Positions 59,576 through 64,000 of a DNA stretch of 64,000 bases are shown piece by piece (position 1 is the first letter of the stretch; each line of letters begins with the position of its first letter). The stretch covers positions 186,001-250,000 of the forward strand of contig NIVC01000305.1 in the NCBI GenBank assembly GCA_002269645.1. The letters are read 5' to 3'. The notes beneath the pieces are model-generated. The model did not search any database, had not been told where the DNA came from, and worked only from the letters and a program-made list of their open reading frames with translations. The translations under genes and the position numbers were made by a program. Source of the stretch: Macrostomum lignano. Lineage: Eukaryota.

Positions 59576-60288
59576 TGAGGTGGGGTGGAGAAAGTTTTCT
59601 TGGAAATGGGTATGTTGAAATTAGTTGCTGACACCAATGAAGTGGGGCGAATTCCACGCTTGAATTGCCGCCGGCGTTGAGTTCGCACGAATAACCCGGA
59701 AATCGCGCAGACGAACCACAACGAAATTCTTTCTCCTGTTTTACTCCGACTGCCGGGTTCTTAAGTCCGGGGGGGGGGAGGGTAGTCGTAATCGTAGCGG
59801 CGCGGTCGTTCAAATGATGAGATACCATAGATTCTGACACCGTAATTTAATGTGTCGTTTTGCTGAGCTTGTTGCTTTAAGTAGCATAGTTGCTGCCACC
59901 ACCGTAATTTACGTATTACGGAACGGATAAGTCTCTGAGCTTTCTTTGAGCTGAGAACTTTGGTTATTTTATGCTCCACAGGCAAATGACTCAATAAATG
60001 CTATGGCTTATGGATCAACGAATAAATATTCGATATTAAGTGATGGTTTACTGGATAAGCAGGTAAAATTAATAATTACGATCGAGAAGATTTCGCAGCG
60101 GCACCGGGGTGCTAAATTAAAAATAAGATGAACAAGCTAAACTTAATATACTAAAGTAGGAGAAGGAGAAGAATAGTATAAAAATTTCGCACGGAAAATC
60201 ATGGTCTTAAATAATAGTCGCGAGTAGATCCACGTGCGGGAGCAGCTGCTGGAAAACACAGTGGACAACACTGGGCCTTTTCATTTCA
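59576..60288 (-). mobile_element. 5' LTR of the gag provirus (R/U5 and part of U3), family B
   Basis: Plus strand starts TGAGGTGGGG; adjacent to the PBS; core shared with the downstream copies. Confidence 0.75.
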
Positions 60289-60953
60289 ATTACGGAACGT
60301 TGAGATCTCAGAGCTCGTCCGGAGTTGAGATTAATTGGATTGTTTAACGCCCCACGTGCAAATAACTCAAGATAAACTATTAAAGGCTTCGATTAATTAA
60401 CGAACTGATTATTATTAACAGCAGGCAGTTATTATATTGTTTTATTATTGTTACTAACGAACGAATGATCGCAGTGGAGCCGGGTGCCAACGGTAACTAA
60501 TTAAATATTAAAAGACTATCAAACGGCAAGGACACTGTACTAATTCGAAATAAACAGGGAGGCAAACTAACTAACCAAGTAAGTATGTAAATGAGCAAGG
60601 ATAAACGAGAGAGCGAAAGAAAAGCGGGGGGAACAGGGAGCAGGGAAAGGAATGAAGAAATGGCGGCCCGAAAAGGCCTTATAAGTATGAAAACTGGGCC
60701 GTCCGGACAGGGATGGGGGAGCAGATGGGGCCAAAAGGCAGGGGATGGGGCAGAGGATGGGGCAAAGGATGTGGCAACGGACGGCACTACTAAAACAAGC
60801 AAAGAAACAAACAAAATTAAATGACGACAAACGATGGGCGAGGGATGGGGCAAGGGCAAAGGGTGACCCAAAAATGGGGGGCATCAACTGGGTTGCGCAA
60901 AATGTCGTCATGCGAATTACCATTCCAAAAACGTATTAGATCGCCCTACCACA
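60289..60953 (-). mobile_element. Truncated family B LTR (U5 side deleted)
   Basis: Re-enters the conserved core at ATTACGGAACG; ends CCCTACCACA, the inverted match (8/10) to TGAGGTGGGG. Confidence 0.65.
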
Positions 60954-60964
60954 CTTGCACAAAT

Positions 60965-62165
60965 TGAGGTGGGGTGGAGAAAAGAGAAAAATGGGAAATG
61001 GATAAATTTAAAAATGATCTCTTTCGAAATCAGTCGGTTTGCTGATACCAATGAGGTGGGCGGTTTTAAGTTTCAAATTCCGCCTCCGAAATCACGGCGC
61101 ACGTAAAGCCGGAAAATGTCACCGTATAACTCGAATCGCTTTTCTCCTTTGGATACTCCATCTGCCGGGTCCTCAATTCCGGGGGGAGGGTAGTCGTAAT
61201 CGCAGTCGAGTGGTCTTGAGCAGGCACGGTCGTTCAGAGGGTAGACTCAATGGTCTAGACACCGCAATTCTGTTTTCTGAGTTTTCTGTTTTGATTACTT
61301 TTAGTAGAGTAGCGCTGCCACCACCGTAATTTACGTATTACGGAACGTTGAGATCTCAGAGCTCGTTCGGAGTTGAGACTAATTCGGTTGTTTAACGCCC
61401 TGCGGGCAAATAACTCAAGATAAACTATTAAGGGCTTCGATAGATTAACGTAATTAAGTAAAGAGCAGGTTACCAAATTATTTATTACTTAGCCGACAGA
61501 TATTTTGGCTACGAATGAGAGTCATCCGGCTGTTCCGAGGTGTCGAATAATTAAGTAAATTTAATTAAAGGCGGTGGCTGTTAAGGTTTAAACAAAAATT
61601 ACAAACGTAAGAATAGAGAGCACAAGAATAGCACGAAAGAAATCCACGAAAGGGGGTTAAAATGCATGACAGAAATGCGGCCAGGACGGCCATATAAATA
61701 ATAGCAACGAGCAGTGCCGACGCCTGGTGCAACCAGTGGGGCAGCGAGCGGGGCAACCAGCGGGTCAACCGGGGGAAAGGGGGCCCGCGAGAAGGGTCAA
61801 CCCAAGGATACCCGCAGAAAAACAGGTAAAAACAGAAAAAACACAGGATGGGGCAACGAGGGGAACAGCGATGGGAACAGGGATAGGACCGGGGAGACAA
61901 ACGATGGGGCAGGCCACGGACAGGCTATTAGATTAAGAGCAACTGGATAACGGTAGTAGCTTATTATTATTATTAGGCTCGCAAGATAATTATTAACGAA
62001 AATTATGACGATTTATTAGAGATATTAATATTATATTACTAAGCTCACTATGACGGGGTGATTCGGCGTGCCGAAAGTTACTTAAACTAAATTAAGTTGA
62101 TGCGCTAAGCAAAATATCAATTAAGAGATTGAATGTTAACGACAAACGAACTAGTTTACTCCACA
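60965..62165 (-). mobile_element. Family B solo LTR, 1201 bp
   Basis: TGAGGTGGGG...CCACA termini; TSD AAAT/AAAC (3/4 match). Confidence 0.65.
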
Positions 62166-62240
62166 AAACAAAACACGGGGAAGGAGGGGTGGGGGTAGGG
62201 GAGGATTGAATTGAGGAAGCGACAGGCAAACGGTTATATG

Positions 62241-63393
62241 TGAGGTGGGGGCGGTTTAGATTGGGTGGTCGTCCGGTGTTCGCTTGATTTAATGTCGAGT
62301 TTGAGCGGCTCAGGCCTTTGAATCGGCGCCGTCGTTAGTTCACACGAATTAAATCCGGAAATTTGCGTGGCCGATTCCCAATTTAGAAGTCTCGTAGATA
62401 CTCCGTCTGCCGGGGTCCTCAATTCTGGGGGGAGGGTAGTTTTAGTCGTAGGCGAGCGGTCTTCGTTGGCGCGAGCGTTCAGAGCGGGTCCTCAGACACC
62501 GAAACTTAATGCACCTCGTATGTTTGACTTGTTACTAACAGTAGAGTAGCGCTGCCACCACCGTAATTTTACGTATTACGGGACGTTAAAGTCTCAGAGC
62601 TTTCTTCGAGTTGAGAACTTAGTAGTTTTATATGCCCCGTGGGCAAATGACTCAAAATAGGCTAGGCTTCGGATTAATTAATGAGAGATTAAAGTTGTTG
62701 CAAATCGTTTATTAAGTAAAGTGAAGAGATGTTTTAGCTGTTCGTTGGCGACTGAGTTAAACTGGCGACCGTATCAAAATTAATAAAACACGCTAGAGAT
62801 GTCCGAGTGACCGAGAAATGGGAATACTCAAGCCTAATCCGGCGGATGATTCGGGCGGTGCCGCGGTGCACTAATAACCAACTTAGAAACAATCGACTTG
62901 AACACTTGTCGCAAAGTGAGTCGGGTGGATTTAAATATTAGTAGATAAATTGAATGGGTCGGCGGAGGGAAGGAAGGAGAAGGAGAAGAAGAAGACGAAG
63001 CCGAAGCAGGATGAAAGTTGGGCAACTCCAGGGGGCACCAATAAATAGAAAAAAGTCGTAGCAAATGGACGAATGGGGTCAAACGCTGGAGACAAAAGGT
63101 GGTCGCGGTGACCAAGCATTGAACGGAAGAAATCATCACGGAAATACATGGACACAAACAAAATTACCAAACAAGGGACGCGCAAGGCTAGAAAAAGGGG
63201 CAGGGTGACCAGCGCAGGAATAGGAGAAAAAGATGAAATATCCCAACAGCTGGGGGCACAGGGTGGACACAATAAGCCAAAAACTGGGGACAGCGGAGAA
63301 GGGTCATGGGGTGGTCTAATAGATAAAAATAAAATTTCAAAAAAAATATTAAGCGTTAATTTAAATAGTCAGTGGCAGCCCCCAACTGCCACA
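62241..63393 (-). mobile_element. Family B solo LTR, 1153 bp
   Basis: TGAGGTGGGG...GCCACA termini; perfect 4-bp TSD TATG; TATAAAA on the minus strand near 62630. Confidence 0.85.
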
Positions 63394-63660
63394 TATGCAA
63401 CACAATTTCGCATACTTCAAAGGGGGGAACAAGGAGGGGAACACCAGGTGGAGCACTAGCTGGAAAAAGGGGGCAAAACCCGGAGAAAAACACATTAAAA
63501 CAAGGGCGGGACCAAGAGAAGGAGCAACAAGGGGAACAAAGGCGGGAGCAACCAAGGGAATGTTAATAAACATTCAAAGGAGCCGTCGGTGACGTCAATT
63601 GTCGCGCCTCCGGAGGGAGACGTCGCGCTGTCGCCAACCGCTGCCTGAAGCCCAGTTGTA

Positions 63661-64000
63661 TGAGGTGGGGTGGAGAAGGTTTTTCTTGGAATGGGTAAAT
63701 TTGAAATTAGTTGATGACAGCAGTTAGGTGGGGCGGATTCCACGTTTCAATTGCCGCCGGCGTTGTGTCCGCACAAATAAAGCCGGAAAAACCGCGCAGA
63801 CAGATCTCAACGAATTTCTTCTCCTTTTACTCCGACAGCCGGGTTCTCAAATCCGGGGGGGGAGGGTAGTCGTAATCGTAGCGGAGCGGTCGTAGAGCGG
63901 CACGGTCGTTCAGATGATAAATCACCGGAGGTTCTGACTCCGTAAATTAAGGCGTCGATGTGTTGAACTTGTTACTTTCAGTAGGGTAGTTGCTGCCACC
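63661..64000 (-). mobile_element. Family B LTR running off the window end
   Basis: TGAGGTGGGG start; strong similarity to 59576-59900. Confidence 0.85.

Follow-up and report, generated by a model that had tools for sequence, protein, structure and literature searches.

Why should LTRs of one retrotransposon family crowd together, all facing the same way, at positions 59576..64000 of a 64,000-nucleotide stretch of the Macrostomum lignano genome (the window)? An earlier note on this DNA saw four same-orientation insertions in about 350 bp of target DNA, and proposed that independent subfamily members had repeatedly integrated, in fixed orientation, into or next to the U3 of a relative's LTR; in other words, that integration was self-targeted. 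The answer is that integration is indeed targeted, but that the target is not only self and the orientation is not fixed.

The cluster is a nest in which at least six LTR pieces from one Ty3/Gypsy family can be told apart. The four reported starts are all exact matches to TGAGGTGGGG (59576, 60965, 62241 and 63661); when one mismatch is allowed there are nine matches in the window, against a shuffle mean of 1.8. The element is encoded on the minus strand of the window, with TGAGGTGGGG as its U5 end and CCACA as its U3 end, and all four starts share this orientation with the gag remnant and the primer binding site. From left to right, the pieces are:

58037..59506, minus strand: gag remnant of a host, provirus-like element (Retrotrans_gag, E 0.0037, below the cut-off)
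59557..59574, minus strand: primer binding site (PBS), of the same type as in full-length copies
59576..60272, minus strand: LTR1a, putative U5/R part of the 5' LTR, 84% identical to a C283 LTR up to 60273
60273..60284, plus strand: 12 bp, at the junction within chimeric LTR1, that match the beginning of a MITE terminal repeat
60289..60953, minus strand: LTR1b, of a second subfamily (C129/C412 type; 82% over 557 nt), U5 part lost and U3 terminus intact
60954..60964, no strand: 11-bp spacer, contig-bridged, the sole stretch of the cluster without an LTR assignment
60965..61928, minus strand: LTR2a, C749/C1630 type, 11 bp outside the U3 end of LTR1, final ~110 bp missing
61932..62240, minus strand: left part of host LTR H, C890 type, with U5 core lost; the CCACA at 62165 is no true end, and 62237-62240 is the left TSD copy
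62241..63393, minus strand: LTR3, a complete solo LTR that entered H at a TATA-like motif and has the TSD TATG
63394..63660, minus strand: U3 part of host LTR H, 93% identical to the C890 copy and 97% in C730
63661..64000, minus strand: LTR4, inside the terminal hairpin of H, reaching to about C305:251846 beyond the window

The gag remnant contains a premature stop; the zinc knuckle found at the C-terminus of intact copies is missing, and no pol follows within the window. The PBS, a TGG-starting site 1 nt past the LTR, we take to be tRNA-Leu-like. In LTR1 two subfamilies meet near 60288 to form a chimera. The first part of LTR1 carries an internal relic terminus and PBS-like motif (59627-59647) and a conserved core palindrome (59892-59921), and the 12-bp match at the junction may be either a MITE relic or a product of chance.

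The host LTR H had been overlooked in a count of five pieces. Homology of LTR2 to its own subfamily ends at about 61915-61928, and a search with 61440-62245 splits there: up to about 61928 the sequence belongs to one subfamily, and 61932-62240 to another LTR, that of C890. In a natural C890 copy, 61932-62240 (86%) runs straight into 63394-63660 (93%) with only one TATG at the join, and LTR3 therefore sits inside a sixth LTR. It lies 282 bp from the U3 end of H and LTR4 15 bp from it, the U3 end of the C890 copy being found 15 bp beyond the equivalent of 63660. Two of the three CCACA ends proposed earlier, at 60953 and 63393, are family termini; the third, at 62165, lies inside H, and the C890 relative runs straight through its equivalent (86%), reading CTCTACA there. 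The TSD pair TATG/TATG is borne out by the contiguous C890 flanks, but AAAT/AAAC is not a TSD, because 62165 lies inside another LTR and not at an end. Likewise, the 11-bp spacer is real, but those of 75 and 267 bp are both LTR sequence, and the supposed 350 bp of target DNA is mostly H, which took in LTR3 and LTR4. Also borne out are the co-orientation, the core common to the four copies (69-83% identity) and the conclusion that this is no simple tandem amplification, since the subfamilies differ and the TSDs are independent.

Four of the six junctions (60953-60965, 62240, 63660 and, in runs of two studies, ~61930) are bridged by short-read contigs and are no assembly artefact. At 63393 the contig bridge is only 26 letters, but the homeologous contig C730 carries the LTR3-H-LTR4 part at 97%; among the contig pieces listed, none spans the sixth junction, at 60288. 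LTR4 has a piece of LINE inside it, and its right TSD and the last 15 bp of H are absent. Beyond the window LTR4 continues, and then come a hAT-like element, LTR5 and, nested in the U3 of LTR5, a further element. (The C305 and C730 guests in LTR5 align as one event and were rejected as separate ones.)

The family is a Ty3/Gypsy LTR retrotransposon. Full-length copies have gag, a frameshifted pol in the order protease-RT-RNase H-integrase (in C40 and C422 its frame is 1545 aa long) and an additional, variable ORF (ORF3). The LTRs are ~950-1200 bp long, and exact 4-bp TSDs flank TG...CA termini in 58 cases; every U3 end has a short inverted repeat with compensatory variants, and the U3 parts of 51 LTRs form 33 clusters. 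In four of four full-length copies examined, the 3' LTR is preceded by a C-rich tract and not by a polypurine tract. The nearest named proteins are from Macrostomum lignano (integrase 88%, RT 56-61%). Five LTR pairs are 97.9-100% identical, and those of young full-length guests 99.6-99.7%. Genome-wide (764 Mb) there are 227 exact core motifs; U5-like motifs number 1129 (129 in controls) and U3-end motifs 959 (245 in controls). Family termini come to roughly 700-950, and the copy range used was 600 to 1100.

Does the arrangement in the window recur? In a sample of ~10 kb around the first 100 of the 227 exact core hits, 11 rows were merged as two LTRs of one element or as paralogues, which left 89 events. 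On curation, thirteen of these fall into a co-oriented relative's U3 or into the 300 bp beyond its U3 end, where 0.04-0.08 were expected (p<1e-24); they form 10 clusters (p<1e-18 counted by cluster). Seen from the host side, the next junction falls in the U3 or within 300 bp outside it in 12 of 90 hosts. A control zone at 300-4000 bp had four junctions in 324,735 bases, which makes the U3 end ~18 times richer in junctions than surroundings that are themselves enriched. Guest and host both keep their own TSD at C393, C245 and C1178 and in most layers of the C3372 nest, and nests close like brackets, each with its own TSD, up to five LTRs in a row at C3372. Repeated insertion of independent subfamily members in or beside the U3 end of relatives, as the earlier note had it, is thus found genome-wide, far above chance. 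All counted insertions are fixed copies of one LTR family, which do not by themselves separate targeting from selection, and ~80% of the sampled insertions are at neither U3 ends nor the MITE base described below.

Orientation is one-way inside the U3 and two-way outside it. Within 100 bp inside, exact patterns searched genome-wide, with paralogues merged, gave 16 independent co-oriented nests and no inverted one (38 rows, 8 of them non-family and dropped before merging). Within 100 bp outside the U3 end there are seven co-oriented cases and four inverted U3-U3 pairs. The seven are what was left after merging from 16 rows, of which four without host core (the C487 group) and C87, without host match, were dropped and three of C283 type were moved to the inside set; the four come from eight rows representing five loci, C166 being dropped. 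A genome-wide strand bias, such as the earlier note proposed to test for, therefore holds inside the U3 but not outside, and fixed orientation is contradicted by the inverted pairs just outside. U5-U5 pairs within 100 bp are absent genome-wide; at 101-300 bp there is one event, which passes through the MITE. Two inverted copies, at C245 and C297, abut the U5/R part of a relative. One further pattern search gave 15 rows, six of them without cores. Among the patterns set aside, a first one for inverted nests gave 43 rows: none of five loci checked had the family core, and the remaining rows were judged from their sequence to be another repeat or simple repeats. A stricter inverted-nest pattern had no match genome-wide. 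A first pattern for stacked ends (13,183 matches) was swamped by tandem repeats and went unused, and a second, with three matches, was over-strict.

Even single bases have been used again. In hosts that are 97% alike and have different flanks, guests only 66% alike sit at the same base, 39 bp from the end (-39); in hosts 99% alike, guests that are 45% alike sit 5 bp apart. The sharpest hot spot, however, is one base of an unrelated MITE of 264 bp, with 15-bp TIRs starting GGGCC and 3-bp TSDs read at C283, C40, C891, C709 and C304, which by its TIRs and TSDs we take to be of PIF/Harbinger type. Of 670 pattern hits, 11 have an insertion at one ATAT within the terminal repeat. Ten of these 11 insertions are independent (element sides 51-69% alike, distal flanks 50-56%), four in one orientation and six in the other, and four of the 89 sampled events lie at this base. 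The expected number is 0.001 if insertion is uniform, and 0.011 with the measured base preference. The mirror site in the other end of the MITE has no insertion, one insertion being found ~66 bp in. Self-targeting is thus only part of the picture: the family's own U3 ends are enriched, but so is this foreign base, which has moreover been entered both ways.

What could direct integration to such different places? On balance, and with moderate confidence, we suggest a tether: a putative sequence-specific DNA-binding factor of the host that holds the integration complex at U3 ends and at the MITE base. Bound near U3 or MITE ends, the factor would recruit the complex to a window reaching from about -100 to +300 bp relative to the U3 end, within which base preference would pick the exact site. 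Every new LTR would bring a new window, so that nests would grow, up to five deep; LTR-LTR recombination would then be likely to reduce guests to solo LTRs, and later deletions to produce chimeras such as those of this cluster. Against a tether of this kind, no common motif was found, whether between the MITE and 33 U3 clusters or at a fixed distance among 56 other sites (both searches of low power), and the integrase has no recognisable targeting domain: the chromodomain that the earlier note had suggested looking for is absent from the Pfam matches of the C422 integrase at E<=0.1, which are only H2C2 and rve-type domains. (The integrase has a C-terminal acidic tail, conserved among copies; a homologue search with its C-terminal region found one only.) The tether also leaves without account why insertion is one-way inside the U3 and two-way outside.

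The pattern would follow without any specific tether if the family prefers accessible chromatin upstream of promoters, as supplied by LTR promoters and gene-proximal MITEs, and if a short palindromic preference picks the base. Junctions are integrase-type, and the sites have a weak palindromic preference, roughly TTnWTG-nWWn-CAWnAA (G at -1, p=4e-8; W in the TSD centre; T at -2, -5 and -6). They are AT-rich (0.65 vs 0.57), the U3-end windows lie ~200-500 bp upstream of TATA-like motifs, and regional clustering extends past the U3 window. The MITE hot base scores at the 98.8th percentile for base preference, and its unused mirror site at the 60th. However, base preference amounts to ~11-fold and leaves ~900-fold over at the MITE base, and five other MITE positions of similar score, including equally good ones near the other end, are unfilled within 120 bp of either end. 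We consider this account rather unlikely.

Less likely still is an account in which a protein of the element itself (its integrase, or the product of the lineage-specific ORF3) recognises transposon ends in general, among them the chromosomal U3 end or its terminal hairpin, and places the new copy next to the end. Such recognition would fit the offsets, which follow the U3 terminus (median 44 bp, with 24 of 25 curated inside events at <=100 bp, in a list biased to short distances by searches that reached 100 or 300 bp) more tightly than the internal core (631-927 bp). It would also fit the inverted repeat at every U3 end, the one insertion at a hAT-like end and an excess of sites within 15 bp of repeat boundaries (8/42 vs 41/600 controls, p=0.01), although this last test was post hoc, is modest and includes the MITE site. 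On the other hand, insertion sites have no excess of hairpin potential (p=0.91), on which ground hairpin or cruciform targets were rejected, and U5 ends, to which integrase also binds, are untargeted. ORF3 is variable and was detected in only some of the full-length copies; it had no match in Pfam, homologue or Atlas searches, and was rejected as a known targeting factor.

Insertion at random, with later selection for safe havens and recombination that left nests behind, is very improbable. Only fixed copies are seen, and the chimeras and missing TSDs do speak of later deletions, but selection would hardly explain ten uses of one base in 264, or the choice of U3 over U5, and in plants LTRs are the rarest nesting place (PMC6911290). 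That one unit was tandemly duplicated, or misassembled, is scarcely credible: the assembly is redundant, with many paralogous loci, but the pieces belong to different subfamilies with closer relatives of each elsewhere, the TSDs are independent, the junctions are bridged and paralogues were merged before counting. The sites were very probably chosen at integration, and not by selection or duplication.

To our knowledge, well-defined targeting by LTR elements comes mostly from yeasts and Dictyostelium. A factor that tethers integration near U3 and MITE ends would have its closest parallel in Tf1/Tf2 and Sap1 of Schizosaccharomyces pombe, where Ty3/Gypsy elements likewise insert repeatedly at single, fixed bases beside a DNA-bound factor and LTRs seed hot spots (PMC5741268, PMC5371812). 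Tf1 insertions lie at -9 and +19 from the Sap1 motif (PMC5741268). Sap1 acts at LTRs, and LTR-borne barriers have been proposed to seed the hot spots of Ty1 and Tf1/2, which could explain nests (PMC5371812). Unlike in the Tf1/Sap1 system, the host here is an animal, the strongest site is in an unrelated DNA transposon, the nests are deep and made of many subfamilies, and the factor is putative. The family resembles Tf1 in site behaviour; by this analogy, a shared mechanism is putative. Ty3 targets Pol III start sites, and Ji et al. are said to have found in 1993 that Ty1 hot spots lie near tRNA genes and LTRs. These elements and the present family both insert again and again within a narrow window and form clusters of solo LTRs, but no tRNA gene stands beside the clusters here. 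With one tRNA gene in 97 segments (1.19 Mb) and no Rfam matches in 13 loci, tRNA and other Pol III genes were rejected as targets. DIRS-1, Zepp and Tx1-clade LINEs use their own or other transposon copies as targets, through a tyrosine recombinase or endonuclease-primed insertion, whereas the family described here has a DDE integrase and 4-bp TSDs.

Same-family nesting with a weak palindromic preference is also known from the 'autoinsertions' of plant LTR retrotransposons; plant nests favour the 3'UTR and LTRs least, whereas here the U3 terminus is the hot spot (PMC6911290). In Drosophila, TE dimers arise by double insertion, site preference giving adjacent copies that include inverted LTR pairs; LTR tandems there mostly share an LTR by recombination, whereas here guests have their own TSDs and belong to different subfamilies (PMC5932611). 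The accessible text of a 2025 survey of M. lignano LTR elements has no mention of nesting, target or insertion sites, or tandems (PMC12801592). A literature search that covered few subscription journals found no report of such targeting for this family.

What does the finding mean? Nests of this kind mislead LTR annotation and copy counts. Here a young family, in an animal capable of transgenesis, has a base-precise natural hot spot in a non-genic repeat together with self-seeding nests. With it one could ask directly whether hot spots carried by LTRs account for clustered and nested insertions, as has been suggested (PMC5371812). More tentatively, this may be an animal Gypsy lineage whose integration machinery reads transposon ends: a single tether would lead it both to the U3 termini of related copies and to a terminal repeat in a DNA transposon. 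If so, each insertion would seed the next and, in the MITE, disable a competing end.

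Insertions of the family were found at the ends of other transposons. Two of these (C82:479056 and C573:427756) fall right where a second MITE-like repeat begins; a third, at C305:254597, sits flush against a hAT-like end. A single nested junction was recovered in six copies (C419, two on C2402, C2525, C3667 and C4249), having probably spread by amplification inside a larger repeat. Other elements in the window were tentatively identified by eye:

52701-54774 and 46433-47509, minus strand: fragmentary frames that resemble a Polinton-type DNA polymerase B and a capsid
56957-58019, minus strand: broken mariner-like transposase, immediately downstream of the gag remnant

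Within the LTRs, the most conserved part is a 30-bp motif (window 59892-59921) that contains a hairpin and a PBS-like 10-mer, and of which there are 227 exact copies genome-wide. In many LTRs of the family a U5-like terminus occurs a second time, internally, some 60 bp in from the true end, and a PBS-like motif comes after it:

59576-59647: LTR1 from its true end through the internal terminus and PBS-like motif (59627-59647)

From the sequence, it is as if an old end and its primer site had been overrun by extension of the LTR.

Two further features belong to the coding region of the copy on contig C422, from which the pieces L109 and L110 are taken:

L110:1-700, minus strand: long low-complexity spacer in pol, rich in Pro, Ser and Arg, separating RNase H from integrase
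L109:6056-6910, minus strand: extra ORF downstream of integrase, with a Pro-rich product

Pfam, homologue and Atlas searches assigned the extra ORF to no family and returned no homologue; it matches at 93% in C392 and, in pieces, at 27–70% in other copies.

How is the plus strand primed? No polypurine tract precedes the 3' LTR in the copies on C422 (L109/L110), C40, C392 and C319; a C-rich tract lies there instead. A short inverted repeat occupies the first 20 bases of the 3' LTR, and its sequence differs between subfamilies by compensatory changes. Plus-strand priming in this family may be unusual.
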